64,000 nt of DNA from Pseudobdellovibrionaceae bacterium (GCA_020635235.1 JACKAF010000001.1:92743-156742); one strand, 5' to 3'; numbered from the stretch's first letter, positions 7,135 through 54,972 are shown. Notes: a model not told the origin generated them from the letters alone. Made by a program: numbers and translations.

Positions 7135-7980
7135 CTATTCTTTGGCCTTCAGATCTGGAAAATCTTGGTAGTCAGCAGCGTCTAACGGTGCTCCCGCTCG
7201 GCCAATCGGGTAGTCGTCGGCTTCTTCCAAACCGATTCGCTTACCAAAACGAGTAACGCGATCCTTGATTCTACCAAGCAAGAGCTCAACGTTTTCTTCA
7301 TCACTAAGCTTCGGATCTTCGGATCCCAAGTCGCGTTTGAAGTTTGTATTTTTGGCGAAGTTAGTGAGCGCCACTTTCAGCAGCGGAATTTGTAGAAAAT
7401 TAGGTTTGAAAATGGGTGCCGCACCTGTTCTAGGAGGCTGCGGACTAGGACTGTTCGAAGCTTGCGGCAATTCTTGCGGACTGGCCTTTGCTTCGCGGCT
7501 TTTCTCTGTTTTATCGGAACGCTCAGCTCCTTCTTGTTTTTTTTCGTCCAGCAGTTTCTCTAGTGAGTTTCCCAAGTTCTGCTTCGCATTGGCGCTTACC
7601 AACTCGATCGCAAGAATGGTTGCCTGACGCATGTCTTTTTCGAGAGCCAAAATCTCTTCTTTAATCTTGCCGTCTTTTTCTTTTTTAGCTTTTTCAGACC
7701 AATCGTAAAAATCAGGGTAATCTTTGGCGACCTGTTCAAACGGCCTAAAGTTGTCTTTAAGAAAAGCTAGATCTTCTTTTTTGAGAAGCTCTGATTTGCC
7801 CGCTACATAGTCTGCAGAAGACGCCACATCTGGGTCGCAGCTCGTCCCACTACCGTTCGCACAAGCATCTGCAAGGGCGGCTCTCAGTGCTCGCTCCGAA
7901 TGGGATGCCTGTTCCGCCGCTACTATGTAGTACGACGAAACCAAAATTAGAAGAACTGCAAACCTTCTGTATACGTTCAT
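7135..7980 (-). CDS. Hypothetical secreted Lys/Glu-rich protein
   Basis: ATG 7980 with GGAG RBS, signal-peptide-like N-terminus; the ORF-track TTG start overlaps a sigma54 promoter. Confidence 0.65.
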   Translation of the reverse strand: MNVYRRFAVLLILVSSYYIVAAEQASHSERALRAALADACANGSGTSCDPDVASSADYVAGKSELLKKEDLAFLKDNFRPFEQVAKDYPDFYDWSEKAKKEKDGKIKEEILALEKDMRQATILAIELVSANAKQNLGNSLEKLLDEKKQEGAERSDKTEKSREAKASPQELPQASNSPSPQPPRTGAAPIFKPNFLQIPLLKVALTNFAKNTNFKRDLGSEDPKLSDEENVELLLGRIKDRVTRFGKRIGLEEADDYPIGRAGAPLDAADYQDFPDLKAKE

Positions 7981-8017
7981 GGCTACTCCAATCACAAGTC
8001 GGCCTTGATTTCTGAGG

Positions 8018-8033
8018 TGCAAACTAAGAGCCA
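8018..8033 (-). promoter_or_regulatory. sigma54-like promoter TGGCTCTTAGTTTGCA
   Basis: GG-N10-GC with TGGC and TTGCA; predicted TSS ~8007, RBS and ATG 7980 downstream. Confidence 0.55.
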
Positions 8034-8095
8034 AATTGTCGAGGGTAAAAATGGGCGGAATACTAGAGGTAAACGTCTAGGCGGCGAAGCTCCAG

Positions 8096-8482
8096 CTACT
8101 TTTTGGTGGCTTCGACGTAGCGTAGGCGGACTTCGGTAAGTAGGCTAGTGACAAGCTCCGCTTCCTCGTTGCTCAGATTTCCACGGGTCTTGTCTACAAG
8201 CATCGCCAAAATGTCGATATTTTGTTTGGCGAGATTTACATCCTTGTGAGTCTTTTTTGTAATCGGGTCGGGTGAGAGGCCCAGATTAATCAATGCACCG
8301 GTCGCGAGCGAAAATACAAACGTCGAAAAGTCTACCTCTCCGGGGTGGGAGGGCGACGAGTCAGATTTGCCCGAATCTTTCATCACAAATCCATCGCCTT
8401 CCGACTCTTTGGTCTCCGCTTTGGAGTCCTTGGCGGAAAATCGGCGATCAATAACCTTGATTTCCTCGTCCTTTGAATTCAT
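8096..8482 (-). CDS. DUF1844 domain protein
   Basis: FSTFVFSLA...LG...P......D...AKQNIDIL.ML..KTRGNL..EE..L...L.E.R..YV pattern; TGATG overlap with upstream gene. Confidence 0.8.
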   Translation of the reverse strand: MNSKDEEIKVIDRRFSAKDSKAETKESEGDGFVMKDSGKSDSSPSHPGEVDFSTFVFSLATGALINLGLSPDPITKKTHKDVNLAKQNIDILAMLVDKTRGNLSNEEAELVTSLLTEVRLRYVEATKK

Positions 8483-9165
8483 CAAACTTTTCCTTCGGCA
8501 ACGTCGGCCTTAACCTCAGGGGCGGATGCAGGCTTGGGGGCCTCTTTTTTGGGTTCCGCCGGCTTCTTCGAGGCCGCTTTTGCTTTTGCCTGAGCGATAA
8601 GATTCTTCAACTTGTCTTTTCGTACCACCAGTTCGGAGTAATCAAGCGAACTGACTGAAGGCGCATCCTGATCTACGGGCGCTAGCTTATTCAAACCAGT
8701 AACCTTAGTGGGTTTGGAAGCTAGAAGTTTTCTAAACGCTCCAATGTAAAAAGTTTTGTGCAAACAAAGTTCATCGGTCGTTCTCAAACTGACCGTTATG
8801 AGAGCTTCGCGGGACTTGATAGAGCCATCAGAAAGAAATTCTTTAAACTCGTCCGGGAGGATGACCGGCTGCCAAAACGGACCCTTGGCAGGCGGATCCA
8901 TTGTCACTGTGAACCGCATTTCTTTCTTAACTGCGCTCGGGGAGAGAACGTTGACCGTCAAGCGGTACGCCTCAATGGCGTAAACGGCGGGATCCCAACT
9001 GAACCAGTAAGCCAACTGGCCATTGTCTCCGGTTCCCGAAACCCCAAATTTCGGCCGCGCCGCGCGGGCCCGTACACTCAAGACCCCAAGTACCAGAGCA
9101 TAAAACCCAACCAGCACGGTCGCCGTGCCTACTACCGCCCCAAAAAGGGTCAACAAGACTGACAT
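8482..9165 (-). CDS. Hypothetical membrane-anchored protein
   Basis: N-terminal TM helix, Lys/Pro/Ala-rich tail, GGAG RBS, coupled to DUF1844. Confidence 0.65.
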   Translation of the reverse strand: MSVLLTLFGAVVGTATVLVGFYALVLGVLSVRARAARPKFGVSGTGDNGQLAYWFSWDPAVYAIEAYRLTVNVLSPSAVKKEMRFTVTMDPPAKGPFWQPVILPDEFKEFLSDGSIKSREALITVSLRTTDELCLHKTFYIGAFRKLLASKPTKVTGLNKLAPVDQDAPSVSSLDYSELVVRKDKLKNLIAQAKAKAASKKPAEPKKEAPKPASAPEVKADVAEGKV

Positions 9166-9303
9166 TTTTTAGTCTCCACGCCTCAGTAAAAACGGGCTTC
9201 TTTTTACCATATTCCCACCCCACCGCAAATTTCCTTTCGGTATCTCAAAGCTTTACCCTGGCGCGCCATGAAAGGCCTTTGGGGCTGAGCTAAACTAGTT
9301 TGG

Positions 9304-9972
9304 ATGAACACATGGAAAGCTCTCGTTTTGGGTCTCTGCAGCGCGTTTTTTTCCCTTCAACTATGGGGTTTCACCACCGAAACCACGGCCATCATGGACT
9401 CGCCGCTCAACTTCGGCCTAGATATCCAATATTCAGCAATCGACTATAGAAATTATGCGTTTACTGACACTGACACGAATACTCAGCTCGGCCACGCGGT
9501 ACACATCGCCTTTGAGTGGCTCCCCCTAAAAACTATCGGAAAGCTGGGAATAGGACTTGGAACCGCCGGGGTTTTTGGGTTGAGCAATGTAGAGCTTAGC
9601 GGGAACCGGTACGCGTCCCTCAATGTCATCCCGCTTGAGGGGTTTCTGAGCTATAGGGCCGAGTACGTTCACCAGCAGGTCGTGGTCCCCTATATTAAGG
9701 TAGGCGCGAGTGTGGTGTGGGCGAGGCAAACATCAGAAACAGGTGCGGCCGTACCAGGAACACGCACCTACTATGGACGCGATCTTTCGCTGGGACTAGA
9801 ATTTTGCCTGAGTCGAATCGACCCGGAAGCCAGCCGAAAGTTGGACCGCAGCGTGGGAATCAACTCGACTTATCTTGTGGTGGAGTACACCCAAAGCCGA
9901 TCCGTCGGTCCCTCGGGATCCCCAAACCTCTCGCACGATGCCTACCGGGCCGGTCTGCGTTTCGAATTGTAG
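9304..9972 (+). CDS. Outer-membrane beta-barrel protein (MXAN_2562-like)
   Basis: Signal peptide, YRAEY..QQVVVPY.K.G, LD..VGINSTYL..EY, C-terminal GLRFEL. Confidence 0.65.
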   Translation: MNTWKALVLGLCSAFFSLQLWGFTTETTAIMDSPLNFGLDIQYSAIDYRNYAFTDTDTNTQLGHAVHIAFEWLPLKTIGKLGIGLGTAGVFGLSNVELSGNRYASLNVIPLEGFLSYRAEYVHQQVVVPYIKVGASVVWARQTSETGAAVPGTRTYYGRDLSLGLEFCLSRIDPEASRKLDRSVGINSTYLVVEYTQSRSVGPSGSPNLSHDAYRAGLRFEL

Positions 9973-10007
9973 TTTCGGGCGCCAAGAGTTATTTTGAGTG
10001 GCCTTTT

Positions 10008-10094
10008 GGAGAGGTGGCTGAGTGGTTGAAAGCGGCGGTCTTGAAAACCGTTGTCCCCGCAAGGGGACCGGGGGTTCGAATCCCTCCCTCTCCG
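10008..10094 (+). tRNA. tRNA-Ser (TGA), long variable arm, CCA not encoded
   Basis: GGAGAGG acceptor paired with CCTCTCC, D-loop AGTGG, anticodon loop CTTGAAA, GTTCGAATC. Confidence 0.95.
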
Positions 10095-10125
10095 GTGTTT
10101 AAGGTGATTCGTTCTCTTTTAAGAA

Positions 10126-10836
10126 ATGGAAATTCAAGAAGCGACAATCCCTACCCCGAACGGCGAGCTCAAATACCGCCTCACTCAAGGCCAGTCCCAT
10201 CAAACCCTGATCTTTATGCATGGCCTGCCTGGACCTAGCCTCCACATCCGAGCGGTCGTAGATCGCCTGGTGGAGCGCCTAGGCTGGAACGGCTTGAGTT
10301 TTCATTACCGCGGTTGCTGGGGCTCCACGGGGGAGTATGCGCTGACGAAACAGCACGAAGACTACGTGGCGGTTTGTGGATGGCTAAAAGAGGTGAGAAA
10401 AATTCCCGCCCCCGCGCAAATGACTTTGGGCTATAGCATGGGCGGATACAATCTATTAAGAGCTCTCTCCGAAGGGCGTGTTGCCGGAAAAGCGATTGCT
10501 CTCGCCCCACTCACGCGCATTGAAGGCTGTGGTATTGACGACGCTTTTTTTGAAGAAGCCAGCGGACTGCTGGAGATGCCCCCTGTAAAACTCAAGTCCC
10601 AATATGCTTTATTGCCGGCCATCGATTTTGCGAAGGTGGATAAGGAGATATCTCCGCTACTCAGCATTCTTACCGCCGCAGAGGATGAATTATTTTCCGA
10701 AGATTATTACCAACAGCAGTTTCATGAAAAAGCGCGCTCCAAGTGGACGTCGGTCCCTCGCGCAAATCACCTCTTTGAGGGCGTCGAAAAGGAACTAGAG
10801 GAGGGCCTTTTTCGACTCCTGTCCACAACCAACTGA
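10126..10836 (+). CDS. Alpha/beta hydrolase
   Basis: MHGLPG, GYSMGG nucleophile elbow, late Asp and His (ANHLF). Confidence 0.8.
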   Translation: MEIQEATIPTPNGELKYRLTQGQSHQTLIFMHGLPGPSLHIRAVVDRLVERLGWNGLSFHYRGCWGSTGEYALTKQHEDYVAVCGWLKEVRKIPAPAQMTLGYSMGGYNLLRALSEGRVAGKAIALAPLTRIEGCGIDDAFFEEASGLLEMPPVKLKSQYALLPAIDFAKVDKEISPLLSILTAAEDELFSEDYYQQQFHEKARSKWTSVPRANHLFEGVEKELEEGLFRLLSTTN

Positions 10837-11734: not shown

Positions 11735-12570
11735 GCCGTCTGAAATTGCGAACCTTCTTCAAGGCTATTAATTCGAACAAAATCGCCGTTTACGTATTTT
11801 TCCAGCTCACGTTTCCCAATTAACCCTGAGTTTGCAACGAGCTTCCCTTTTCTAACATTGTGAACCGATAGCAAGTGGTTTGCCGCGTTCATTTCTTCCC
11901 AATCTAATGATTGGTGATCTATCGAACTAGGTCGAGGGTTCGGTATGCATCTATTGAAACGACACTCGAAAGGTCCGCGCCACCGTAGCGTATTCCAAAA
12001 ATGCAGTAATCGAGAAATTCTTTGGGGCACTATCTTCGCCTTGTACTTGGTAGCAACTCTGCGCACAAAATCGTGATCCTGGTAGCCGTAGGGTTGAAAT
12101 TGCTCGTCGTATCCCCCGACGCCGTAGAAGTGCGCTCTAAGGGTGGAGATGCGGCCTGTTGAGCCATCACCGGGACCGGCCTGCTGATGATAAACGATGG
12201 GCCCCTTGTACGAAGCAAACGTCTCAAGCACATGCCTGCCTCCGCGTCGGCCTGTAAAATTGTCGCCATCCAGGTTGGTGAGGATGTCGCCGCTTCCAAG
12301 CACGGCAGCGGTGTTCTTTGCGAACGACGTGTCGTATGGATCGAGTGCGGGCGCACGGTACAGACTCAAAAAGCCGCTTTCCAAGTGTCGGGAAAAGTTT
12401 TTTATTATCCAATCTACCGTTCCGTCCGTACTCGCAAAATCCACCAAAACAAAATTCACGGTTCCCCGATCGGCGAAGTTATCGGTCAGATTCTGCGGAA
12501 GGGTTTTGGATAATTGCCAAAAGCGATTCCTGATATGTATGCAGAAGGTTAAAGTAAGCTTGGATTTCAC
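11731..12570 (-). CDS. GT2/GT7-like glycosyltransferase
   Basis: LVDFASTD, NLDGD, GGYDEQF..YGYQDHDF motifs. Confidence 0.75.
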   Translation of the reverse strand: MKSKLTLTFCIHIRNRFWQLSKTLPQNLTDNFADRGTVNFVLVDFASTDGTVDWIIKNFSRHLESGFLSLYRAPALDPYDTSFAKNTAAVLGSGDILTNLDGDNFTGRRGGRHVLETFASYKGPIVYHQQAGPGDGSTGRISTLRAHFYGVGGYDEQFQPYGYQDHDFVRRVATKYKAKIVPQRISRLLHFWNTLRWRGPFECRFNRCIPNPRPSSIDHQSLDWEEMNAANHLLSVHNVRKGKLVANSGLIGKRELEKYVNGDFVRINSLEEGSQFQTA

Positions 12571-12671
12571 TCAGATCAAATTGTAGCAAACAAGGTTCCT
12601 TTTGACACCAGGGACAGGAAAAAAGCACACATTGACAAGCCTCTACGCATCGCGCTGCGTGCCTAGCTCCT

Positions 12672-12687
12672 TGGATCTCATCTTGCA
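12672..12687 (+). promoter_or_regulatory. Weak sigma54-like site TGGATCTCATCTTGCA
   Basis: GG-N10-GC with perfect TTGCA but poor -24 element; 50 nt upstream of the serine hydrolase ATG. Confidence 0.3.
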
Positions 12688-12736
12688 GTTGCATTGGGAG
12701 GACTTATTCTAGTCCTGATTTTCCACGGATAGGAAC

Positions 12737-14930: not shown

Positions 14931-15126
14931 CTTTCACCTTGATCTTCTTAGGGGATTAAAAAAGTGGCGCTAAACTAGCCCAATTCTAAACTTTGCGCAA
15001 CGCATAACAAATTAAAACTAATATTTTCAAATACTTAACCAGAACGAGCGGGCGCGCTTGCAGATTTTCCGACGGTTGGGAATTGAAGGCTGTCCCTTCA
15101 AAGATGTGTTGTGTACTCTGGGCAAG

Positions 15127-16320
15127 ATGCCAATGAGCACCAAAGAATACCGCTTCCCGTGGCAATTGCTACCCGTCATCCTGGACGGCATTTCCATCCT
15201 CGATGTTCCAAGCTTGGAAGTAAAAACGATGGAAGGCGCAACGAGCTTCATACAGGCCTACGGATACAACCCGAGTGACCCCAAGGACATCGAGCTCATC
15301 TGGAAGTACGTGGAAGACGCCGTCCTATTCATCGAGAAAACCCTCCAGGATGCCGAATACCCAAAAGTTCCGGAACACCTGCGCACCCGGGATGCCATGA
15401 AGGACGTCCGGCGACTCATCCTTTTGGCTTCATCCAAGGACAATCCGGATCAGCTTTGGGCCTGCGCAATCTTGAGGGTTGCCCATGTACTTATCCATCT
15501 CGCGCATGATCCACGTCTTCGCTATTTCGCACACGCACAGAACCAAATCCTCGGTCGGCTTGATGATCACCTTTATGTCGACAGTTCGACAGGATCTATC
15601 TACCTGGGGAAAAAAGAGGAAGGCGGCGGAATCAAACTCCTGTTTTTCAAAAAAAAGGACCGCAAAGATCGCGAGCGAGAAATCGTAAAAATGCTTCACA
15701 AGGCCGAGAGCACCGTAGAAGTCATCTATGACCGAATCGGCTTTAGGTTGGTAACCGAGACCAAGTTCGATGCCATGCGAGCGGTTCGCCTGATGATCAA
15801 TAAGAACATCATAAGCACGCCGAGTGTTCGCCCATCGAGATCCCGCAACTGGTTGATCGATGTTGAGAAACTAAAAACAGAAACCGAGCGCATCATCACA
15901 GCCATCAAGAAAGGCGCAAACAAAGAACGCTTCGACATTTCCAAATACATCCGACGCATGGAACGACGGATCGCCCTAAAAAGAAAACACGGCAGCCTCC
16001 TCAACCCCCAAACGAGCGAACACTACCGAGCGATCCAGTTTACTTGCCGTGAATTGGTAAAAATTCCGAACCCGCTCTACCAGGCCTACAGTTTGACCAA
16101 GGAGCAGCTTGAGCATGTTCCAGGCGGGTCCCAAATTTTTCACGAGATCTACCCTCAGCCCGTTCCCTCCCATGAGTACATTTTCTTCCCGTATGAAATT
16201 CAGATAATGGACGTGAAGTCCTATGCGGATAGCATCTTCGGCAAGAGCAACCACGAGGAGTACCGCAAGAAGCAGCTCGAAGTGGCCCGAAATCGAGTCT
16301 TCGGTCGGGGACGAAGCTAG
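15127..16320 (+). CDS. TIGR04552-like protein with RelA/SpoT synthetase-like nucleotidyltransferase motifs
   Basis: RK......K, DRIGFR, HYRAIQF, YEIQI, HEEYR motifs; start ATG 15127 or 15133. Confidence 0.7.
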   Translation: MPMSTKEYRFPWQLLPVILDGISILDVPSLEVKTMEGATSFIQAYGYNPSDPKDIELIWKYVEDAVLFIEKTLQDAEYPKVPEHLRTRDAMKDVRRLILLASSKDNPDQLWACAILRVAHVLIHLAHDPRLRYFAHAQNQILGRLDDHLYVDSSTGSIYLGKKEEGGGIKLLFFKKKDRKDREREIVKMLHKAESTVEVIYDRIGFRLVTETKFDAMRAVRLMINKNIISTPSVRPSRSRNWLIDVEKLKTETERIITAIKKGANKERFDISKYIRRMERRIALKRKHGSLLNPQTSEHYRAIQFTCRELVKIPNPLYQAYSLTKEQLEHVPGGSQIFHEIYPQPVPSHEYIFFPYEIQIMDVKSYADSIFGKSNHEEYRKKQLEVARNRVFGRGRS

Positions 16321-17884: not shown

Positions 17885-18124
17885 TCGGACGACAGACATC
17901 CGGTATTCCGGCGGAATGCTTCACAATCGCCATAATCTGGACAATCTGGCGTTTCCTTCATAAGTCCGCGCGTATCAGATTAGTCTTCGATCCCTTCACG
18001 TCGTGTATTCGCCTAAACAAAGAACGCTTCGTCGCGTTGGGCGCCTAAACGCCGCACTTTACCCGCGTATTTTCAAACACTTATTTTTCCCAGAGAACGA
18101 GTGCGTCTGGCCCAATCTTTGCTC

Positions 18125-18152
18125 TTTACATTGCCCAAGCTGAAGTTATTAT
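18125..18152 (+). promoter_or_regulatory. sigma70-like promoter TTTACA-N16-TATTAT
   Basis: Near-consensus hexamers ~170 nt upstream of a strong terminator. Confidence 0.45.
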
Positions 18153-18232
18153 ACGATGCGCTAAGCCCAAAGGTCTGGTTGGCCTAATTAAAAAAAAGTT
18201 TTTCTTGCTGAGTGGAACGTAAGTGGAGCGAT

Positions 18233-18310
18233 ATGGAAGGGACCTCTTGCCGAAAGCACCACCACTATATAAAGGGTCCCTTCTTCCAATTTGAAAACCC
18301 CGGCGACTGA
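18233..18310 (+). CDS. Possible 25-aa leader/small peptide MEGTSCRKHHHYIKGPFFQFENPGD
   Basis: GGAG 4 nt upstream, CAC CAC CAC run, stop inside terminator loop; may instead be non-coding. Confidence 0.3.
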   Translation: MEGTSCRKHHHYIKGPFFQFENPGD

Positions 18311-18325
18311 ACGCCGGGGTTTTTT
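18294..18325 (+). terminator. Intrinsic terminator (possibly bidirectional)
   Basis: AAAA CCCCGGCG actgaa CGCCGGGG TTTTTT. Confidence 0.85.
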
Positions 18326-18479
18326 TATTTCCGCGTTAGCGATTGCAAAAAAACCAATAATATCAAGAGCGCCTTTTGGTACAAACGGAGCGGCGCCGTT
18401 TCGCTACGGCCGCAGTGCCTTGGGCACACCGCCAATAGGCATTGCCATTTTTTTCCCACCCACGTACTTCTGTATTGTT

Positions 18480-21071
18480 TTGAGTAAGATTTATCAGTGG
18501 ATAGATAGCGCCTGGCAATGGGTTGCGGAGCGGGTCTTTGTGCGTTTCGATTTCGACTTGCCGTCGACGAACCTGAAGCACATGGCGGAGAATGGTCGAC
18601 TCACGTTTTGCCTCACCCATGGTGGAATCGTCGAGTGGCTGATTCTTTCCAGTTGGAGCCGGCAGAATAACCTCGGTGCGGTACTCATTGCGAATCGCAA
18701 ACGCATCCTCTTGTTCTCAAAACCGCTGTACTTTTTGCAGATCCTTTTTCGCCACAAGAAGTACGAAGATCTGTTTCTATCTTCGGAAATGGGGCCCCGT
18801 TTGCTTTTTTGCCCCTCCCGTGAACCCAAAAGGCCGTTTGATCCGACGCCCTCGGAAAGTGTTCTAGCAGGCATTTACAAACAACTAGCCCCCACAGGCA
18901 CCTTGCAAAGTTTCCATTTGGTTCCTGTACTCATCCTTTGGAGAAAGTATGTGCGAGGGGCCAAGCGACGCCCCTTTGAGTATTTGCTAGGCCTCAGTTC
19001 TCGCCCCAACATACTGGGCAAAATGTATTACTTGTTAAGACAGCGAAGAGATTCCACTGTCCGCGCACTGGACCCGCTAGACATGCATTCCCCTGCCACA
19101 GACACAATGGAAATGCTTGAGGCCTCCGAAGCGGTGCGAGTGGCCAAGGCAACACGCCGAAAAATTCTCGTCCTCACCCAACAAGAAATGCGGATAATTC
19201 TTGGACCACGTTACGATTCCCCCCATCTCGTCAAAGAATCGATTTTGCGAGACGCGGAGATAACCGCCACTATTGCCCGGCTGTCCAAAGCAGAAGGCGT
19301 AGACCCTAAAAAAATAATGCAGCGAGCGTACCAGAACCTGACGGAAATTGTAGCGAACTACAAAGTCCGTACAGTGGAGGTTTTGTACGTTTTCTTGCGG
19401 TGGATGTTCACAAAGGTTTTTGACGGCGTCGAATACTCTTCCGAGCAGATCGAAGAGGTACGGGAAATCATGAGGAAGCGCTCCGTAGTGTTTATCCCAT
19501 GTCACAGAAGCCACTTCGACTATCTCGTCATGCCTTACGTTCTCTTTGAAAATGACATCGTAACACCCCACATCGCTGCGGGCGTGAATCTGTCTTTTTG
19601 GCCGGTGGGATCGGTACTTCGTTCTGCGGGGGCTTTTTTCATTCGCAGGTCCTTCAGAGGAGATGAACTCTACGCGCTTTGCCTCAAGAAATACGTTGAG
19701 TACATTTTGAAGAACCGCACTCCATTTAAGTTTTTTATCGAGGGGACGCGGAGCCGATCTGGAAAAATGCTTCCCCCTGCATACGGAATTCTCAAAACTG
19801 TGCTCGAACGCTTCCAGAATCATATTGTGGAAGACATTGCTCTCATCCCCGTTTCCATCACCTACGACGAGGTTCCGGAGGAAGGCACTTACTCCCAGGA
19901 ACTGGGCGGTAAAAAAAAGACGGAAGAGTCTACAGCAGCCCTCTTAAAGTCTCGGCGTGTGATAAAGCGAAAAATGGGACGCGTCTATCTCAGGTTTGCC
20001 CACTTCCTTTCCGTTAAGGAAATCGAGGAACTCTCTCGCGAGAAAGCTGAAACGTCCACTCTCATGCTTCAAAAGACGGCGTTTCGGGTCTCCAAATCGA
20101 TTTGCGACGTCACTCCCATCACTCCGAAAGCTATTGTCTCAACCATTTTACTTAACCACCAGATCTCGACCCTTTCTCTCGAAGAAATCCTGAGACTGGC
20201 GTCCATGGTAGCTAACTACTTGCGGTGGGCCAAAACCCCGATGACAGTCGGAAGAGATTCGGAGATCAAACGAGCTATCGAGCAAATTGTGCGAACGCAA
20301 AGGCGCCGAGGCGTTATTGGAAGTGCGGAAGACACTGTCCCCCGACTCTATTTTTGCGAAGAATCTAAACGCACTCTGCTCAACTACTACAAGAACAACG
20401 CTATACATGCACTCGTACTTCCGGGCATCACCCTGCTCGCCGCAATGAAAATGGCGTCCCGCCATGGCGAATACCAGCAGGAACAGCTCCTCAATTACGC
20501 CACTGAGCTAAGAAATCTGCTTAAATTTGATTTCTTTTTTAACCCGACTTCAGAATTTCGTGAGGAAATCACTCACCTACTCGAGTACTTTCTTCCAGAA
20601 ACCGCGCGCAACGGAACTCGCTTTTCCGCACTCTCATCGACGTTTGAAAAACTTCAGGACATGACCGTCTACACGTCGGGCCCGGGTTACCTCTTGGAGA
20701 GCTACTTGATTGCCCTTGATGCTACTAAGGAGATTGGATCAGGTACCTTCGAGAAAAAGGCGCTGATCCAGACAATAACCCGTTTCGCCGTCTCGTTGAG
20801 AGAAGGTCGCCAGCTCCGATTTGCGGAATCGATTTCCATCCAGAACTTCTCTACCGCGATTCAGATGCTCGAGAATCACGGGCTCATCACCGAGGAAAAA
20901 GCAGACGCTAGAATCAAGTTTCGCATCAATCCTTACGATGAGGCGGTTGCCTCTCTAAGACAAACTCTGTTTGGCTACTTGGAGCTCATAGACGCTCAAC
21001 CTCAGCGAGTTTTTGATTCTATCTCTATAAAGCATTCAAGCGGACAGGAAGGGCAAGAGGTCTCGCCTTAA
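18480..21071 (+). CDS. plsB: Glycerol-3-phosphate acyltransferase, PlsB-like
   Basis: PCHRSHFDY, GAFFIRR, FIEGTRSRSGK, IPVSITYD motifs; start uncertain (TTG 18480 chosen; the ORF-track start overlaps the terminator). Confidence 0.8.
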   Translation: MSKIYQWIDSAWQWVAERVFVRFDFDLPSTNLKHMAENGRLTFCLTHGGIVEWLILSSWSRQNNLGAVLIANRKRILLFSKPLYFLQILFRHKKYEDLFLSSEMGPRLLFCPSREPKRPFDPTPSESVLAGIYKQLAPTGTLQSFHLVPVLILWRKYVRGAKRRPFEYLLGLSSRPNILGKMYYLLRQRRDSTVRALDPLDMHSPATDTMEMLEASEAVRVAKATRRKILVLTQQEMRIILGPRYDSPHLVKESILRDAEITATIARLSKAEGVDPKKIMQRAYQNLTEIVANYKVRTVEVLYVFLRWMFTKVFDGVEYSSEQIEEVREIMRKRSVVFIPCHRSHFDYLVMPYVLFENDIVTPHIAAGVNLSFWPVGSVLRSAGAFFIRRSFRGDELYALCLKKYVEYILKNRTPFKFFIEGTRSRSGKMLPPAYGILKTVLERFQNHIVEDIALIPVSITYDEVPEEGTYSQELGGKKKTEESTAALLKSRRVIKRKMGRVYLRFAHFLSVKEIEELSREKAETSTLMLQKTAFRVSKSICDVTPITPKAIVSTILLNHQISTLSLEEILRLASMVANYLRWAKTPMTVGRDSEIKRAIEQIVRTQRRRGVIGSAEDTVPRLYFCEESKRTLLNYYKNNAIHALVLPGITLLAAMKMASRHGEYQQEQLLNYATELRNLLKFDFFFNPTSEFREEITHLLEYFLPETARNGTRFSALSSTFEKLQDMTVYTSGPGYLLESYLIALDATKEIGSGTFEKKALIQTITRFAVSLREGRQLRFAESISIQNFSTAIQMLENHGLITEEKADARIKFRINPYDEAVASLRQTLFGYLELIDAQPQRVFDSISIKHSSGQEGQEVSP

Positions 21072-23214: not shown

Positions 23215-23230
23215 TGGCTCCGCGCTTGCA
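23215..23230 (+). promoter_or_regulatory. sigma54-like promoter TGGCTCCGCGCTTGCA
   Basis: GG-N10-GC with TTGCA; ~50 nt upstream of small ORF 23279. Confidence 0.55.
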
Positions 23231-23278
23231 ATTACCTATCAACAGAACTGGTTTTGAAAACTTTAAAGCGTAGGATGG

Positions 23279-23470
23279 ATGGACCCGCGACTTTGGAATT
23301 TGTTTGTTGTCTTTCTTTTGGTGCTCACCTTGAACTTAGCACGCGAAGGATTTGACGTCGACAAACGGAAGAGAGTAGCGGAAGAACTCCAGCATGCCTC
23401 CGAGAAAACGCACACGGTCGAGATAGTGAGGCCCGAGAAGGACCTCAAAGTGTCGAGGAAGAGTTTATAG
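23279..23470 (+). CDS. 63-aa hypothetical protein with N-terminal hydrophobic helix
   Basis: Bracketed by a sigma54-like promoter and a terminator; TM/signal segment followed by a charged tail. Confidence 0.6.
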   Translation: MDPRLWNLFVVFLLVLTLNLAREGFDVDKRKRVAEELQHASEKTHTVEIVRPEKDLKVSRKSL

Positions 23471-23499
23471 ATCTTGATGCGCGGGACGGAAGGCACCTA

Positions 23500-23547
23500 G
23501 AAGGTGGGGGCCAGGCAATCGTGCCTGGACCCCGCCTTCTTCTTTTT
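23500..23547 (+). terminator. Intrinsic terminator, long stem
   Basis: GAAGGTGGGG G CCAGGCA atcg TGCCTGG A CCCCGCCTTC then TTCTTTTT. Confidence 0.75.
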
Positions 23548-23646
23548 GAAGGTCCCTCTGTCTAAAACTTAGTTGCATTTTTCAGCAGGCCGGCTCAGGC
23601 GCCATACTAAACACCTAAAATTAAAAGGTTAATTCGAGGGCTCAAG

Positions 23647-23662
23647 TGGCAAGGCTTATGCA
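23647..23662 (+). promoter_or_regulatory. sigma54-like promoter TGGCAAGGCTTATGCA
   Basis: GG-N10-GC, TGGCA; AT-rich upstream; ATG 23681 follows closely. Confidence 0.5.
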
Positions 23663-23680
23663 CTTCTTTAAGCTAAGGGT

Positions 23681-24499
23681 ATGGGGAAATTCAAAGCAAT
23701 CATAGTTCTAGTACTGGCCTCCGTGGCATCGTCCGCGGGCGCCCAAGGCCTTGATGGGCTGCTCGGCAAACAAACCGACCAGCGCAGAGGCGCCTTCAAC
23801 GACTCTCTGGCCGCATTTAATAACTCCACGAACCCCAATAGCCTGAACAACATCTACCAATCTCCTCAGCAGGCGTTTATCTCAAACCTGATGCAAAGCA
23901 CGCAGGCCAAACTGCCCGAGCGGCGGGATCCAAGCGAGATCACAAAGCAGTTTGAAGAAGGGCGCAAGAGCGCAGAAGAGTCCTTTAAAAGTTTGCAGGA
24001 ACAAATTCAAAGCAGTGAGAACGCCAAACTCGATCAGCTGAGCAAACTGTTGGGAGTTGACGATCAAGCTTCTAAAGAGGACAACAAGTTTCTAGAAGAA
24101 CTCACTTCACTGGTCGATGCGGGCCGAGGAATTGGGGCCGGCACGAGTGCTTCCGCGCAACCGATTTTGCAATTGGTGTCTGCGAATACACAGTCTCAGA
24201 TTCAAGCGCTTTTGGTCCAGGCCCAGGTTCAAGTCCAACTACAAAACAACGCTCCGCAAACAGTCGTTACCTCCACTGGAGACGATTTCATTCTCGGTAT
24301 TGAACAGGTCGGCGCTTCAATGGCAGCACGCGGGATAAGTGGTAGTCCTTTTGCTGCTACGGCCGCGCTTCGCGAGGCTCGCGACGTCGCAGGGAAAACT
24401 GATGCTTTCACACCAGACACCGTAGACGCTTTCAACCGCACTCCAAGCGATCCGCACTTCGGGCACAATCACGGCTCGGGTGACGGACACTCGCACTAG
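23681..24499 (+). CDS. Hypothetical secreted Gln/Asn-rich helical protein with His-rich C-terminal tail
   Basis: Signal peptide ...SSAGAQ; ends HFGHNHGSGDGHSH. Confidence 0.7.
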   Translation: MGKFKAIIVLVLASVASSAGAQGLDGLLGKQTDQRRGAFNDSLAAFNNSTNPNSLNNIYQSPQQAFISNLMQSTQAKLPERRDPSEITKQFEEGRKSAEESFKSLQEQIQSSENAKLDQLSKLLGVDDQASKEDNKFLEELTSLVDAGRGIGAGTSASAQPILQLVSANTQSQIQALLVQAQVQVQLQNNAPQTVVTSTGDDFILGIEQVGASMAARGISGSPFAATAALREARDVAGKTDAFTPDTVDAFNRTPSDPHFGHNHGSGDGHSH

Positions 24500-37679: not shown

Positions 37680-38861
37680 ATGAGTGACTTCATCAAGGTA
37701 GCTAAGCGCATCGACGAAATGCCCGCCTACATTTTTAGTGAGATAAATAAGATCAAGGAACAAGCCCGCGCAAAAGGCATGGACCTCATCAGCCTCGCAA
37801 TTGGCGATCCGGACAAAGCCACCCCGCCTGCCGTAGTGGAAAAAATGCGGGCCGCTATCGAGAAGCAGCCCAATCATCAGTATTCGCCTTACGACGGTAC
37901 AAAGGCCTTCCGCGAAGCGGCGGCCAGGTTCATGCAGAGGCGCTTTGGCGTTAGCGTGGATCCTGCTTCCGAAGTGGTGGCTCTTGTAGGCTCAAAGGAA
38001 GGCATCGCCCATTTGCCATTGGCGTTTTGTGATCCTGGCGACAACATCCTGTACCCAACTCCCGGATTCCCCATGTATGCGACGACAATCAGCATGGCCG
38101 GTGGAAACCCGATTGCAATTCCACTTACTTTTGACAAGCAGTTTGTGCCAGATCTGGCGCATCTCAAAGTGCAACTTGAGCGCCACAAACCCAAGTACTT
38201 GATCCTAAACTACCCGCACAATCCTACGTCTGCGGTAATTTCAAGAGATGCATTGAAACAGATCATTGATATGGCCAGAGAACACCGCTGCTTTGTGGCC
38301 TTTGACAACGCTTATAGCGAGATCTACTTCGACGACAATAATAAGCCCATCAGCGCACTTGAAATTCCTGGAGCAAAAGACCTGTGCATTGAGTTCCACA
38401 CGCTTTCCAAGACATTCAATATGACCGGCTGGCGCATCGCCTTTGCGGTGGGCAATCAGACATTGGTTCAAGGCCTACTGAAAGTAAAAACGAACATCGA
38501 TTCCGGCCCTTTCCCGGCAACCCAGGAAGCGGCCGTCTACGCGCTAGACAACGAGGACGCGATCGCTTCTGAGGGACGCCAGATGTACGCCGCGCGACGG
38601 AAAGTCGCTTTGGCAGCACTCGACAAACTCGGTATCGAGTATCTCCCTAACCACGCTACATTCTATGTCTGGGCAAGCGTTCCAAACGGTCAGTCTTCAA
38701 TGGACTTCTGCAAGAAGCTAATCGAAGAACAGGGCGTAGTATGCACTCCTGGAGTTGGTTTCGGCGCTGAGGGAGAAGGTTTTTTCCGACTAGCTCTCAC
38801 CGTCGACGTACCTCGAATTGAAGAGGCCATGAAACGCCTGGCAAAGTTTCTGGGACGCTAG
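37680..38861 (+). CDS. dapL: LL-diaminopimelate aminotransferase (class I PLP)
   Basis: GSKEGI, NYPHNPT, DNAYSE, SKTFNMTGWRI; identity inferred from dap operon context. Confidence 0.75.
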   Translation: MSDFIKVAKRIDEMPAYIFSEINKIKEQARAKGMDLISLAIGDPDKATPPAVVEKMRAAIEKQPNHQYSPYDGTKAFREAAARFMQRRFGVSVDPASEVVALVGSKEGIAHLPLAFCDPGDNILYPTPGFPMYATTISMAGGNPIAIPLTFDKQFVPDLAHLKVQLERHKPKYLILNYPHNPTSAVISRDALKQIIDMAREHRCFVAFDNAYSEIYFDDNNKPISALEIPGAKDLCIEFHTLSKTFNMTGWRIAFAVGNQTLVQGLLKVKTNIDSGPFPATQEAAVYALDNEDAIASEGRQMYAARRKVALAALDKLGIEYLPNHATFYVWASVPNGQSSMDFCKKLIEEQGVVCTPGVGFGAEGEGFFRLALTVDVPRIEEAMKRLAKFLGR

Positions 38862-40915: not shown

Positions 40916-40930
40916 CGGCACGCACCTTGC
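40916..40930 (+). promoter_or_regulatory. sigma54 promoter CGGCACGCACCTTGC
   Basis: Near-perfect GGCACG-N4-TTGC; RBS GAGG and ATG 40959 downstream. Confidence 0.7.
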
Positions 40931-40958
40931 GATAACAGTCCCCGATTGAGGTTTTGTT

Positions 40959-41048
40959 ATGTGGACCGTTGGAATACGTAGACGCTTTTGGGTGGCTCTA
41001 GTCTTTGTCTGGGTCGCCGTTTCGTTCGTCGAGACCCTTCTCGCCTAG
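40959..41048 (+). CDS. 29-aa single-TM micropeptide MWTVGIRRRFWVALVFVWVAVSFVETLLA (not in ORF track)
   Basis: GAGG 7 nt before ATG, RRR followed by a hydrophobic helix, sigma54 promoter upstream. Confidence 0.55.
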   Translation: MWTVGIRRRFWVALVFVWVAVSFVETLLA

Positions 41049-41109
41049 ACCGCTGTTGACATGCGGCATCATCCCGATTTAACCGGTATCTACTGGTTTG
41101 GAGGGCAGG

Positions 41110-41757
41110 ATGCACGCACGTGCTCGGTACATAGTTTTCCCAGTTATTTTTGTCGCCTTAGTCCCCTATTCGGCATCCGCGGCGCAATCGCGCTGGGAGT
41201 GGGTGGTGACGTGCGGACGCTATATTGCGAGCGCGGCCCAATGGCTCCGCCGCGACCCCAATGGATCTTACGATCCCCAAACGATGGGGCTCGCGGACGG
41301 CCCCGTACCTGAATCTGGAAACCGCATCCTCAATTGGCTCGCGAGCGTTCGCCCCTATTTGAACCCGCAAGTTTCAGCGGCCATCACGCGCGGCCTGCAA
41401 ATCTTCCCTGAGGTCACCTCGGACAATCTGCCCTTGCTTGCGGAATCCGACACCGCCGATCGCAAAGATCTTTGGAGCAACCTGCTCTCCAAAGAAACGA
41501 GTGAAGCCGATTTCGAAGCTCTGTTGCCTCTGGCACAGCAACTTCTCACGCGCGACGAACGCATGACTCTAGCGCGCTATCTCTTTGCACGTGGGATTAG
41601 GGGAGCCATGGCATCGCCTCAGCAAACAGGCGATACCAGTCTCCAACGTAGCATCCTTCTTGTAAAAAATGACTCGGAAGTACGAGGCTCCGTATTGCGC
41701 GGGATGCGCCGCCAATTCCCGGCACTCGGTTCCCTTCCTGAATATGGGGAAGACTAG
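41110..41757 (+). CDS. Hypothetical secreted protein
   Basis: GGAGGG RBS before ATG 41110, signal peptide ...SASA. Confidence 0.65.
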   Translation: MHARARYIVFPVIFVALVPYSASAAQSRWEWVVTCGRYIASAAQWLRRDPNGSYDPQTMGLADGPVPESGNRILNWLASVRPYLNPQVSAAITRGLQIFPEVTSDNLPLLAESDTADRKDLWSNLLSKETSEADFEALLPLAQQLLTRDERMTLARYLFARGIRGAMASPQQTGDTSLQRSILLVKNDSEVRGSVLRGMRRQFPALGSLPEYGED

Positions 41758-49606: not shown

Positions 49607-49678
49607 CCTTAGAGTATACGCCAACTTTGAAGGGGCCTTGCGGGAGGTAAAAAGAAGGCATGATGCACCCGGCCGAAT

Positions 49679-52119: not shown

Positions 52120-52130
52120 AGCGCAAGAAC

Positions 52131-52883
52131 CTAGCGCTCAAAAAAGAACCACTTGCGCCGGACGCGAGCTCCATAGCTCAAACCAAATTTGCGCAGGCCT
52201 GCGCGTTTTACAAGCGCCGCTACTTCTTCAGGAGAGTCGCTTACAATAAAGCGATCGTAGTCGCGCTCCGAAATCGTGCCCATCTTTACCAGTCGTTGCT
52301 TCATGAACTCAAGAAAGGGCGTCCAATATTCGCGCCCCATTAGAATCACCGGGAAGCCGCGCACCTTGCCGGTTTGAACCAGGGTCGCAATTTCAAAAAG
52401 CTCATCCATGGTGCCGTAGCCACCAGGTAGAGCAACAAAGGCGTAGGAGTATTTAACGAGCATCAACTTGCGAATGAAAAAGTGGCGAAACTCCATGCAC
52501 AGATCCAAGTACGGATTGGGTTGCTGCTCTTCAGGAAGAACAATATTGCAGCCAACGGAATAGCCCCCAGCTTCCTGGGCGCCGCGGTTTGCAGCTTCCA
52601 TTAGGCCTGGCCCGCCTCCAGTCATAACAGTAAACCCCGATCGCGCGAGCTCCGCCCCGAGCTGCCTGCCCATCTCATAATAGGTATTCCCGTCGTTCAG
52701 TCTGGCGGAGCCGAAAACAGTGACACAGGGTCCGACAAAGTGAAGTTTTCTGAACCCACGTAAAAGTTCGAAAAAGATTCGGAAGGCGCGCTGAAGCTCT
52801 TTCCACCGGGTTTGAGCACCACGCAAAAAGAGCCGTTCGTTTTGTACGTCTTTCTGCCGGCGTGTGGGTTTCGGTAGCGTCAT
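52131..52883 (-). CDS. TIGR00730 LOG-family Rossmann-fold protein
   Basis: VTVFGSAR, TGGGPGLMEAANRGA, RKLMLV, PGGYGTMDELFE. Confidence 0.9.
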   Translation of the reverse strand: MTLPKPTRRQKDVQNERLFLRGAQTRWKELQRAFRIFFELLRGFRKLHFVGPCVTVFGSARLNDGNTYYEMGRQLGAELARSGFTVMTGGGPGLMEAANRGAQEAGGYSVGCNIVLPEEQQPNPYLDLCMEFRHFFIRKLMLVKYSYAFVALPGGYGTMDELFEIATLVQTGKVRGFPVILMGREYWTPFLEFMKQRLVKMGTISERDYDRFIVSDSPEEVAALVKRAGLRKFGLSYGARVRRKWFFFER

Positions 52884-52954
52884 GGTCTGTTATCAAATAA
52901 TACATTCAATGCGAATTATTCAGCAACAAAGCAAATTTCGGCTATCATGGGAGC

Positions 52955-53842
52955 GTGGCAACTCCGCTTCCATCACGACTCAACGCAGTTTTGAACGGCC
53001 TTGTGGGCGATAAACTTGAAAGCCAAAACAACAGGCTCGCCATCAAAATGGCGTTTCGCGAGAACGGAAAGGATGTTGCTGTTCAGGATCTGGACCTTCG
53101 GGAACATGATTGGGTTATCTACGTTCACGGCTTGATGGCTGACGAAGCAATCTGGAACGGGTTCGCACCCAAACTCGGCAAACGTTATTCAATCCTTCAC
53201 CTTCGCTATAATACTGGACGCCATATCTCCGAGAACGGAAAATCCCTGAGCGAGTTGATGGAAGAACTCGTTCGCCGTCGTTCCCCGAGGAAGATCATTT
53301 TGATTGGGCATTCGATGGGCGGGCTTGTGATTCGAAGTGCCTGCCACTATGGCAAACTCGCGCGTTGTGCTTGGGTAGGCAAGGTCAAAACCATTTTCCT
53401 TATCGCAGTGCCTAATTATGGAGCGGCCCTTGAGCAGATTGGCCACATCTCCACTATCGCTCTGAAAGCTATTGCAGGATTTTACGTTGGACATATTGGC
53501 GCGCTTATCGAGCAGCGGAGCAACGGTATCAAAGACCTCCGCCACGGAGCTATGGTGGATGAAGACTGGAAGTACGGCGAACCCGCCATATTTAGCTACG
53601 ATAAACATACTCCGGTGCCACCACTTCCTGGAGTCCACTACCACATTCTCGTTGGCAATCTTTCCAAGGAAGAAGACTCACTTATGGCGAAGTACTTTGG
53701 CGACGGTTTGGTAACACCCGCAAGCGCCATTGCAGAAACCCTTCTTCGGGTTTCAACCGTAAAGATTTTCCCGCAGACAGGACACAACTCCATCTTGCGT
53801 AGCAGGAAAGTCCACAACTACGTCCAAAAACAAATTCTGTGA
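52955..53842 (+). CDS. Lipase-like alpha/beta hydrolase (PGAP1-like)
   Basis: VHGLM, RYNTG.HIS.NG, GHSMGG, GDGLV..ASA, HNSIL. Confidence 0.8.
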   Translation: MATPLPSRLNAVLNGLVGDKLESQNNRLAIKMAFRENGKDVAVQDLDLREHDWVIYVHGLMADEAIWNGFAPKLGKRYSILHLRYNTGRHISENGKSLSELMEELVRRRSPRKIILIGHSMGGLVIRSACHYGKLARCAWVGKVKTIFLIAVPNYGAALEQIGHISTIALKAIAGFYVGHIGALIEQRSNGIKDLRHGAMVDEDWKYGEPAIFSYDKHTPVPPLPGVHYHILVGNLSKEEDSLMAKYFGDGLVTPASAIAETLLRVSTVKIFPQTGHNSILRSRKVHNYVQKQIL

Positions 53843-53854
53843 ATCAGCTCCGAT

Positions 53855-54247
53855 TCATAGGGGCAACGGAACCGCCGCCCTCTCTCCCACAAAAACCAGG
53901 TTGTGATGTTCTGCAATCGAGTGCAACCTATCGGCGCGCTGTTTCGCATGGCTCTTGTGGTGTTTCATTTTGTCTTTATGGCGCTTGAGCTGACGTCTTA
54001 ATTTCTCCGTCATTTGGTTAACTGCACCGTACAGACTCGGTGCCTTGACCTCCGCGTGGAGATCCGTGCCATAGGCGCCCAGAACGTCACAATGAGCGAC
54101 GCTGTCGCGCCGTCGCCTCGAAAATGTGACGTGAATCATAGGAGCTTTTTTGGTGAGCTTACCGACCACTCCAAGAAGCTTTTCTTCGGTGTACTGGCAT
54201 AGAGCGGGCGATGGATCGAGTTGATGAAATGCAAAACGTATAGACAT
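53855..54247 (-). CDS. hpf: Ribosome hibernation factor HPF/RaiA (short form)
   Basis: S.AL..Y.EEKL, LHAE.....LYGAV.....KL.RQL.RHK.K; GGGGG RBS. Confidence 0.8.
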   Translation of the reverse strand: MSIRFAFHQLDPSPALCQYTEEKLLGVVGKLTKKAPMIHVTFSRRRRDSVAHCDVLGAYGTDLHAEVKAPSLYGAVNQMTEKLRRQLKRHKDKMKHHKSHAKQRADRLHSIAEHHNLVFVGERAAVPLPL

Positions 54248-54311
54248 GAGTTTCCCCCTTCTTTCTCGTGGTTAACGTTGCTGATGTTCGGTGGTTTTCC
54301 GATTTGGAGAA

Positions 54312-54353
54312 GTTTGGGAAGAAAACCGGTTTTACCCAGATTTCTTCCCAAAC
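54312..54353. repeat. 13-bp perfect inverted repeat in the hpf leader
   Basis: GTTTGGGAAGAAA-N16-TTTCTTCCCAAAC. Confidence 0.85.
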
Positions 54354-54402
54354 CTTTAACTTTCGCGTTTTAGCGATCCAGTCAGGCACTAGTAATTGGA
54401 GG

Positions 54403-54418
54403 AGCAACTTGTGTGCCA
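54403..54418 (-). promoter_or_regulatory. sigma54 promoter TGGCACACAAGTTGCT driving hpf
   Basis: TGGCAC-N5-TTGC consensus match, predicted TSS ~54392. Confidence 0.7.
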
Positions 54419-54572
54419 GTTCGCATTGTTGTCTTTCGTGCCTGACATACCTACGGGCGCGAACTGGATGGGGATAGGATGTAACGAAATGGGACGAACT
54501 AAGGAGTTTTGGATAAGTTGTTTAAGTAATTTAAGAAACTGTTTTGCGCCCATGTGTAAATCCTCCCCGAAG

Positions 54573-54611
54573 CGCCTCAATGCCGCCTCTATACTGAAAG
54601 ACGCCTCAATG
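54573..54611. repeat. 10-bp direct repeat CGCCTCAATG x2 (period 29), candidate activator site
   Basis: Copies at 54573 and 54602, between two divergent sigma54 promoters. Confidence 0.5.
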
Positions 54612-54676
54612 TACCGATTTGTTCCAAAGTTATTTCATTCTGTTTCAGTTTCCACAAACGAAGCCCAAAAAAGTAC

Positions 54677-54692
54677 TGGCACCGCTCTTGCT
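54677..54692 (+). promoter_or_regulatory. sigma54 promoter TGGCACCGCTCTTGCT
   Basis: TGGCAC-N5-TTGC consensus match; AGGAGG RBS and ATG 54730 downstream. Confidence 0.75.
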
Positions 54693-54729
54693 TATTAATG
54701 GGGTGAAAAGCAAAAAAGGAGGCTTGGGT

Positions 54730-54972
54730 ATGGCTATCAATTCAAGGAATGCGGCCGTCCATTCATGGGAGTGTATTGGCCTCGACGCAGACGAGCGCCA
54801 AATGGCGGAGGAGCTTGTCGAGAAAACCCCCAAGCCCTCGGCAGAGCGCTTTGATCTCCACTACAGAAAGAAAAGATCCAGTAAACAACCCGATGATGGC
54901 TACGACCTCTACGCGGCACACGACAGCCACAGGTGGAGCCCGGTCACCCATTACCTAGAGCCTTACCTCTAA
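54730..54972 (+). CDS. 80-aa hypothetical cytoplasmic protein
   Basis: AAAGGAGG RBS 7 nt before ATG 54730, sigma54 promoter upstream. Confidence 0.7.
   Translation: MAINSRNAAVHSWECIGLDADERQMAEELVEKTPKPSAERFDLHYRKKRSSKQPDDGYDLYAAHDSHRWSPVTHYLEPYL

Follow-up and report, generated by a model that had tools for sequence, protein, structure and literature searches.

Predicted sigma-54 promoters upstream of lineage-restricted genes, hpf and a small RNA in an uncultured Pseudobdellovibrionaceae genome

The 64,000-nucleotide stretch of DNA analysed here (the window; C1:92743-156742) belongs to the genome of an uncultured Pseudobdellovibrionaceae bacterium, a metagenome-assembled genome (MAG) of 2.61 Mb in 11 contigs, 79% complete. 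The window carries six sites located upstream of five genes without a recognisable family and of hpf, and a seventh site, at 18108 (+), located upstream of a small RNA (sRNA). With a probability of roughly 0.8, we read these seven sites as functional sigma-54 (RpoN) promoters of the -24/-12 type, belonging to a genome-wide set that is typical of the order and probably served by multiple activators. An earlier note on this DNA had pointed out the six sites as GG-N10-GC motifs. Their coordinates and strands were all as it had given them, and a Pfam scan returned the downstream genes that it had described, five without a Pfam family and one hpf. The note had assigned them to an undescribed system. 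The sites of the window instead represent a sample from a large regulon that spans the order and is of an already known kind; they do not form a discrete undescribed system.

The seven sites and their conservation

In all seven sites the GG and GC dinucleotides were exactly 10 nt apart in a TGGCAC-N5-TTGCW-like context. The scores ranged from 11.7 to 20.4 bits with a position weight matrix (PWM) trained on 85 intergenic seed sites of the same genome, with which the whole genome was then scanned. The strongest candidate promoter, TGGCACCGCTCTTGCT (54677..54694, +, 20.4 bits), precedes the 80-aa gene and is divergent from that of hpf, TGGCACACAAGTTGCT (54401..54418, -, 18.5 bits). The candidate promoter of the 63-aa gene, TGGCTCCGCGCTTGCA (23215..23232, +), scored 17.0 bits and that of the 281-aa gene, TGGCTCTTAGTTTGCA (8016..8033, -), 13.0 bits. 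The lowest values were obtained for the site of the 29-aa peptide, CGGCACGCACCTTGCG (40916..40933, +, 12.3 bits), and for that of the 272-aa gene, TGGCAAGGCTTATGCA (23647..23664, +, 11.7 bits), which has an atypical -12 element. The seventh site, TGGCCCAATCTTTGCT (18108..18125, +, 18.8 bits), abuts the -35 box of the sigma-70-type promoter of the sRNA.

The comparison set covered the order (equivalent to the class in the collection used) with 37 species genomes of 14 genera. The family is represented by three of them: the genome itself (G000), a second genome of the same genus (G001), whose contig C10 is syntenic with the window, and a genome of another genus (G002). The closest public relatives are the MAGs labelled Bdellovibrionota bacterium BC2.86 and Bdellovibrionales bacterium HKST-UBA01. 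The motifs were conserved upstream of the orthologues for all six sites in the sister genome G001, for three of them (those of the 272-aa gene, the 80-aa gene and hpf) also across genera in G002, and for two in HKST-UBA01.

The 8033(-) site corresponded to TGGCTCCCTGTTTGCA in G001, with GG and TTGCA kept and a different spacer. The 23215 site was TGGCGCTTCCCTTGCA in G001 and TGGCGCCCCGCTTGCA in HKST-UBA01, so that GG and TTGCA were fixed and the spacer was different in each of the three genomes; the equivalent position in G002 reads TGGCCGTCGATTTGCA. The 40916 site appeared in G001 as CGGCACAGCCCTTGCGATA / CGGCACAGCCCTTGCG, the -24 and -12 elements being kept while the spacer and the flanks had diverged. 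The hpf site at 54418(-) was TGGCACACATGTTGCT in G001 and TGGCATATGCATTGCT in G002. The 54677 site was identical in G001 inside a diverged flank, and was present as TGGCATCAACTTTGCT in G002 before a 39%-identical homologue. Across these comparisons the -24 and -12 elements stay constant and the spacers drift, which is the footprint expected of sigma-54 promoters.

The 23647 site was identical in G001 and differed by one spacer base in HKST-UBA01, forming an island of identity in flanks that were approximately 40-50% identical. In G002 it was TGGCAGACCCTATGCA, and the unusual ATGCA -12 element was kept before a 35%-identical homologue. Since the class of 10-12 bits has an estimated false-discovery rate of about 25%, the case for this site, the weakest in score, depends on the conservation seen in three other genomes. 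Elsewhere in the genome, three close sites of the same variant, TGGCAAG-N4-(A/G)TGCA, were located before consecutive genes (C7:35948, 38483 and 40102, all +). This trio may represent a promoter sub-class with a single activator in common.

We infer from these sequences that transcription would depend on sigma-54, on the activators serving the promoters and on inducing conditions. In this model, the sigma-54 RNA polymerase would bind the sites as a closed complex, and would fire only once ATP is hydrolysed by one of approximately 14 AAA+ enhancer-binding proteins (EBPs), encoded outside the window, each answering to a signal of its own. The predicted outputs of the window would be two secreted low-complexity proteins, the membrane peptides of 63 and 29 aa, the 80-aa protein, HPF and a small RNA with two promoters.

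The genome-wide set, its machinery and its targets

The bare GG-N10-GC pattern was at background level in the window (642 matches vs 610 expected) and was dropped as a test for this reason, the extended consensus and the PWM of the genome being used instead. The pattern TGGC-N8-TGC was present 18 times in the window vs 8.4 expected, a number that none of 100 shuffles reached. Genome-wide, exact matches to TGGCAC-N5-TTGCW with GG and GC fixed were found at 21 intergenic vs 3 genic positions, and at 69 vs 38 when one mismatch was allowed. The PWM returned, at 14 bits or more, 95 sites in upstream intergenic DNA facing a gene, 16 in the over-extended 5' ends of open reading frames (ORFs) and 4 in other intergenic DNA. 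Only 19 were located deep inside genes, though about 91% of the genome is coding. This match frequency (115 intergenic or upstream sites vs 19 genic ones) is far over background, and corresponds to a density excess of more than 50-fold for high-scoring sites in correctly oriented intergenic DNA. The -12 GC was located at a median of 55 nt from the start codon. The genes were those of our own ORF caller, by which the intergenic share of the genome is 8.8%. From the density of matches in coding regions, the false-discovery rate was estimated at about 1% for scores of at least 14 bits, 8% for 12-14 bits and 25% for 10-12 bits. The sigma-54 promoter set of the genome would thus comprise about 110-150 sites.

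The rpoN gene is present and intact (C4:49071-50489), with PF00309, PF04963 and PF04552 corresponding to the activator-interacting (AID), core-binding (CBD) and DNA-binding (DBD) domains. EBPs are also encoded: 14 matches to PF00158 (sigma-54 interaction) of at least 95 bits were found genome-wide, giving approximately 14 EBPs. No PF00158 match above 35 bits was found in the window, and on contig C1 the closest strong EBP gene was more than 200 kb away. The earlier note had set out in advance four findings that would refute it. Three of these, an absence of rpoN, a background frequency of matches and a lack of conservation, were checked, and none refuted it. The same consensus is abundant in the relatives, with 6-41 exact matches in each of the 37 genomes of the order vs 0-11 for a reversed control pattern. 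The family itself is at the high end of the order, with approximately 9-11 exact matches per Mb, and a sigma-54 set of such a size is typical of the whole order.

The nature of the targets was investigated on 91 genes of 60-600 aa, called by a coding-potential caller and located first downstream of a promoter of at least 14 bits. The controls were 100 random first-in-unit genes without a site and with an upstream gap of at least 50 nt. Both sets were scanned with Pfam as linker-joined pseudo-proteins. A Pfam family was recognised for 37 of the 91 targets (41%) vs 60 of the 100 controls (60%; p=0.009). Proteins that were both family-less and endowed with a signal-peptide-like N-terminus accounted for 38 targets (42%) vs 18 controls (p=4e-4), and signal-peptide-like N-termini overall for 51% of the sigma-54 targets vs 32% of the controls (p=5.6e-5). 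The sigma-54 set is biased to exported and envelope proteins, many of which are lineage-restricted. The preference for orphan genes, noted earlier for the window, is therefore found genome-wide as an enrichment, but not as a rule, 41% of the targets belonging to known families. These include four SLT lytic transglycosylases, four trypsin-like proteases, two EBPs, a stand-alone HTH_8 mini-protein, HSP20, an Fe/Mn superoxide dismutase, FlgB, Host_attach, outer-membrane beta-barrels, a solute-binding protein, lipoproteins, RCC1 and FG-GAP propellers, a Hanks kinase and a PAS histidine kinase. The target set is not accounted for by paralogy, because only five paralogue groups, all small, were present among 145 targets.

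The remaining genes of the window have ordinary functions and no site; among them are the acetyl-CoA synthetase, TolB, ExbD, TrmFO/GidA-family, NDH-2, aminotransferase, NagZ, TadA, glycosyltransferase and Ser/Thr kinase genes. The contrast drawn in the earlier note between housekeeping and orphan genes therefore holds there. Its statement that no comparable site existed elsewhere was correct for the housekeeping genes of the window, but the strong 18108(+) site before the sRNA had been missed.

Alternative readings: occlusion, a single programme or chance

Several observations weigh against reading the seven sites as promoters. Three of the six score just 11.7-13 bits. The 23647 site leaves a leader of about 8 nt before the start codon, so that the Shine-Dalgarno sequence would be the extreme 5' end of the mRNA. 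The gene calls come from a crude ORF caller, and Pfam on linker-joined pseudo-proteins reports the best stretch per family only. The enrichment in orphans is moderate (odds ratio 0.46) and comes mostly from the 150-300 aa class. Searches for dyads, k-mers and shared 9-mers did not identify an upstream activator site for any promoter of the window.

The first alternative concerns above all the 18108 site, whose -12 element is followed after 2 nt by the conserved -35 TTTACA of a sigma-70-type promoter (TTTACA-N16-TATTAT, 18125..18152, +) recognised by a pattern match across genomes. The small RNA that would be transcribed from both promoters (18133..18328, +) would measure approximately 195 nt from the sigma-54 start and 170 nt from the sigma-70 start. 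It ends at a strong intrinsic terminator (18295-18328, +) showing compensatory changes. The 200 nt following 18108 are 98% identical between G000 and G001, vs about 75% for the upstream flank. The core of the RNA (positions 18200-18305 approximately) was found in 17 of the 37 genomes and in 12 of the 14 genera, with 77-86% identity. It contains an invariant hairpin, GAAGGGACC...GGGUCCCUUC, with the loop CCUCUUGCCG(U)AAAGCACCACCACU; the invariant loop, CCUCUUGCCGUAAAGCACCACCACU, includes the anti-Shine-Dalgarno-like CCUCUU. The RNA matched no family of Rfam: the best Rfam 15 match for 18133-18328 reached 24.8 bits for a threshold of 55 and was driven by the terminator, and at the gathering thresholds the window yielded three tRNAs only. 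An internal ORF of 25 aa is not coding, because two non-synonymous changes and a shifted stop separate G000 from G001.

In just five genomes (G000, G001, G021, G011 and G010) of four genera, a sigma-54 site preceded the sRNA core, at a fixed distance of 108-115 nt. The TTTAC-N16/17-TAxxAT pattern was present in 8 of 12 aligned genomes, with looser equivalents seen by eye in three more, and the sigma-70-type promoter existed also in genomes lacking the sigma-54 site. Two assignments of 18108 were abandoned. It is not the promoter of plsB, as the terminator at 18295-18328 precedes the true start of the PlsB-like acyltransferase. It was also taken as the sole promoter of the sRNA, which was revised in view of the sigma-70-type promoter conserved across genera.

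It is conceivable that some of the sites, and 18108 in the first place, are non-productive sigma-54 binding sites, where a bound inactive holoenzyme would occlude or dampen an overlapping sigma-70 promoter. Such a role would fit with the 2-nt spacing at 18108 and with a sigma-70-type promoter that is near-universal when the sigma-54 element is present in four genera only. There are precedents, given that bound sigma-54 represses the overlapping sigma-70 promoter of glmY in Escherichia coli and Salmonella (PMC3045617), and widespread non-promoter binding of sigma-54 was described in E. coli (PMC4591121). However, the sigma-54 promoter of glmY is also productive, and the other six sites of the window are without a recognisable overlapping sigma-70 promoter and stand at a normal promoter distance from ribosome-binding sites and start codons. 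We consider occlusion unlikely as an account of the sites.

The sRNA resembles glmY/glmZ in having sigma-54 and sigma-70-type promoters, the types of which vary between genera. It differs in that its two promoters lie in tandem and abut, their predicted starts being approximately 30 nt apart, whereas the promoters of glmY share one start. The sequences are also unrelated, and no gene for a cognate EBP adjoins the sRNA.

The second alternative is that of the earlier note, in which the promoters of the window would form one programme of starvation, dormancy or life-cycle stage, under a single activator, and would together make up a so far undescribed system composed of hpf and lineage-specific proteins. 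The presence of hpf, whose product acts in ribosome hibernation, is in line with this proposal, as are HSP20 and the Fe/Mn superoxide dismutase among the targets elsewhere in the genome. The starvation or dormancy interpretation, which is drawn from these genes, is conjectural. The hpf and 80-aa genes, with divergent promoters in one 260-bp intergenic region, may well be co-regulated. The sequence CAGGCACG beside the hpf promoter was enriched upstream of sigma-54 promoters (9/115 vs 11/1031). This motif includes GGCACG of the -24 consensus, however, and its enrichment may not indicate an activator site. GAATAC-type sequences, GTTTCAG and CAGGCACG were the k-mers mildly enriched upstream; they were rejected as activator sites, their positions being inconsistent and CAGGCACG overlapping with the -24 consensus.

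Other searches for a shared activator site gave similar results. The upstream 9-mers common to promoters of the window (the hpf/80-aa region excluded) numbered approximately 7, vs 8.7 from shuffles, and no exact palindromic dyad (halves of 5 or 6 nt, gaps of 0-15 nt) upstream of the 115 promoters was common to four or more. At 66-104 nt upstream of the 80-aa promoter there is a direct repeat, CGCCTCAATG-N21-CGCCTCAATG (54573-54612, +). Its first copy is kept in G001 and the second is not, which makes a function as an enhancer uncertain. Without an EBP gene in the window or an upstream motif common to its promoters, the proposal of a single programme was not borne out.

Neither was that of a distinct co-regulated system in the window. 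There were 6 sites of at least 12 bits vs 3.7 expected (Poisson P=0.17) and 4 of at least 14 bits vs 2.8, so that the site density is about the genome average, and the same excess of the consensus was observed in 37 of 37 genomes of the order. With 14 EBPs in the genome and none in the window, a single programme is very unlikely. Since approximately 14 EBPs are encoded, the parsimonious reading is a partition among activators, and the promoters are most likely split among several signal-specific EBPs.

That the matches are functionless chance hits of a short degenerate motif is effectively refuted: the background level of bare GG-N10-GC in the window, the scores of three sites (13.0 bits or less) and the false-discovery rate of the 10-12 bit class would agree with it, but not the density excess in correctly oriented intergenic DNA, the -24/-12 footprint conserved at all six sites, or the weakest one, 23647, kept across genera beside proteins that are 35% identical.

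Known regulons, target products and neighbouring features

The reading of the sites as sigma-54 promoters of a large set has precedents. The scale of the set is not unprecedented in the broad group, because 110 RpoN promoters were predicted in Geobacter sulfurreducens (PMC2725144). The two sets have in common the -24/-12 consensus (TTGGCACGGTTTTTGCT in Geobacter), a number of predicted intergenic promoters above 100, numerous EBPs and targets of widely varying function. They differ in density, which is higher here, a similar number of sites being present in a smaller recovered genome (2.6 Mb, 79% complete). They also differ in the targets, which here, by prediction only, lean to lineage-restricted exported proteins and micropeptides and not to nitrogen, respiration and central metabolism.

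Sigma-54 was previously proposed as a controller of the bacterial exterior, and hpf was linked to it through the gene neighbourhood of rpoN (Francke et al. 2011, PMC3162934). The exported and envelope targets found here (lytic transglycosylases, beta-barrels, lipoproteins and FlgB) match this theme, as does the association of hpf with sigma-54. Differently from that description, hpf is unlinked from rpoN, being on a different contig, and has its own conserved sigma-54 promoter, and most of the exterior targets are family-less.

In Bdellovibrio bacteriovorus HD100, the control of the attack phase was attributed to FliA (sigma-28) (Karunker et al. 2013, PMC3627812). The FliA regulon and the set described here both involve an alternative sigma factor with more than 100 promoters in a predatory lineage, and in both many promoters precede genes for proteases, small RNAs and surface or secreted proteins that are uncharacterised. 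The sigma factor and the class of promoter are different, and the need for EBPs suggests that probably many signals, and not one global switch, are involved. The rpoN gene of B. bacteriovorus (bd0843) was merely listed as present (PMC3464611), and the searchable literature contains no description of a sigma-54 regulon for any Bdellovibrionota.

It is tempting to see in sigma-54 and its approximately 14 activators the main switchboard of a fast-evolving exported proteome, a tentative and rather doubtful reading. It would cover the secreted low-complexity proteins, the hydrolases and the membrane micropeptides, as a counterpart of the FliA attack phase. The sRNA would be its post-transcriptional arm, an order-wide RNA which would have gained a sigma-54 promoter atop its sigma-70 promoter in several genera.

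The class of promoter, the large size of the regulon in the broad group and the exterior theme were already known, and no new mechanism is involved. The analysis provides a concrete and conserved promoter map of about 110-150 sites, favouring exported family-less proteins in an uncultured Bdellovibrio-like predator. Such a map is a cheap route to candidates for condition-specific surface and secreted proteins. It also helps in validating the 29- and 63-aa ORFs, as well as a conserved small RNA, which gene callers miss.

The products of the window are for the most part restricted to the lineage, as the earlier note had proposed: the 63-, 29-, 80-, 272-, 281- and 219-aa proteins are absent from the other 34 genomes of the order. 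The 281-aa protein (7135..7980, -), without a Pfam family, is predicted to be exported, with a signal peptide and an acidic, low-complexity sequence, and was found in the genus only (2 of the 37 genomes). The 272-aa protein (23681..24499, +), also family-less, has a signal peptide, a Q/S/N-rich sequence and a His-rich C-terminus. It is restricted to the family (3 of the 37 genomes), its G002 homologue being 35% identical. The same distribution was observed for the 80-aa protein (54730..54972, +), which has no Pfam family and a strong AGGAGG ribosome-binding site: protein-level homologues were found in the three genomes of the family only, with 39% identity for that of G002. Outside this group of targets, a 420-aa protein of the window (15058-16320, +) gave no Pfam match at E<=0.001.

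The 63-aa protein (23279..23470, +) is a predicted small membrane protein with an N-terminal transmembrane helix and no Pfam family. We consider the ORF as coding from its pattern of codon-position differences (9/2/15), which rules out a purely non-coding segment; the N-terminal, transmembrane half was identical despite approximately 8 synonymous changes. A minus-strand ORF overlapping it contains a stop in G001. The ORF is followed by a conserved 3' element, ATGCGCGGGACGGAAGGCACC, and a terminator hairpin (23471..23550, +), which together are 91% conserved and single-copy in the genome; the terminator stem shows compensatory changes. In G002 the ATGCGCGGGACGGAAGGCACC element is kept behind a sigma-54 promoter on a transcript of about 150 nt without the ORF (L021, approximately 380-320, minus strand). 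Because the element is retained there without an ORF, it may constitute, with the terminator, a 3'-UTR-derived or dual-function small RNA.

The ORF of the 29-aa transmembrane micropeptide MWTVGIRRRFWVALVFVWVAVSFVETLLA (40959..41048, +) starts at 40959 and not at 40960 as first annotated. The 8 synonymous and 3 conservative changes in its alignment between G000 and G001 argue that this ORF is coding. A family-less, genus-restricted orphan of 219 aa (41098..41757, +) lies downstream. Between the two, a conserved TTGACA-N17-TTAACC-like block (41057-41085, +) suggests that the 219-aa gene may have its own sigma-70-type promoter (TTGACA at approximately 41057) besides read-through from the sigma-54 promoter.

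The hpf transcription unit (53855..54393, -) is composed of the gene itself (130 aa, 53855-54247) and a conserved 5' leader of about 149 nt. The HPF protein matched PF02482 (S30AE) over residues 3-95 with 55.7 bits for a cut-off of 23.7 (E=8.6e-15). The leader (54248-54393, -) was nearly identical in G000 and G001 and can form a 15-bp hairpin, GGUUUGGGAAGAAAU...UUUUCUUCCCAAACU (-44.7 kcal/mol, z=-3.45), making it a possible element of post-transcriptional control. The sigma-54 site of hpf is flanked by an inverted repeat, CAGTCAGGCAC ... GTGCCTGAC (54382-54447), with half-sites at approximately +1 and -50, kept in G001 and G002. This repeat may be an operator for a repressor or a co-regulator.

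Some weaker sigma-54-like sites were also seen in the window. A divergent pair of approximately 10 bits each (12583-12600, -, and 12672-12689, +) is present in the 166 bp that separate a GT2-family glycosyltransferase gene from a beta-lactamase-family gene. Four sites of 12.4-15.7 bits were located inside genes (11868-11885, -; 38168-38185, -; 38102-38119, +; 19316-19333, -), some of them in antisense orientation to the host gene. These four may have arisen by chance, or may bind sigma-54 as do the intragenic sites mapped in E. coli (PMC4591121).

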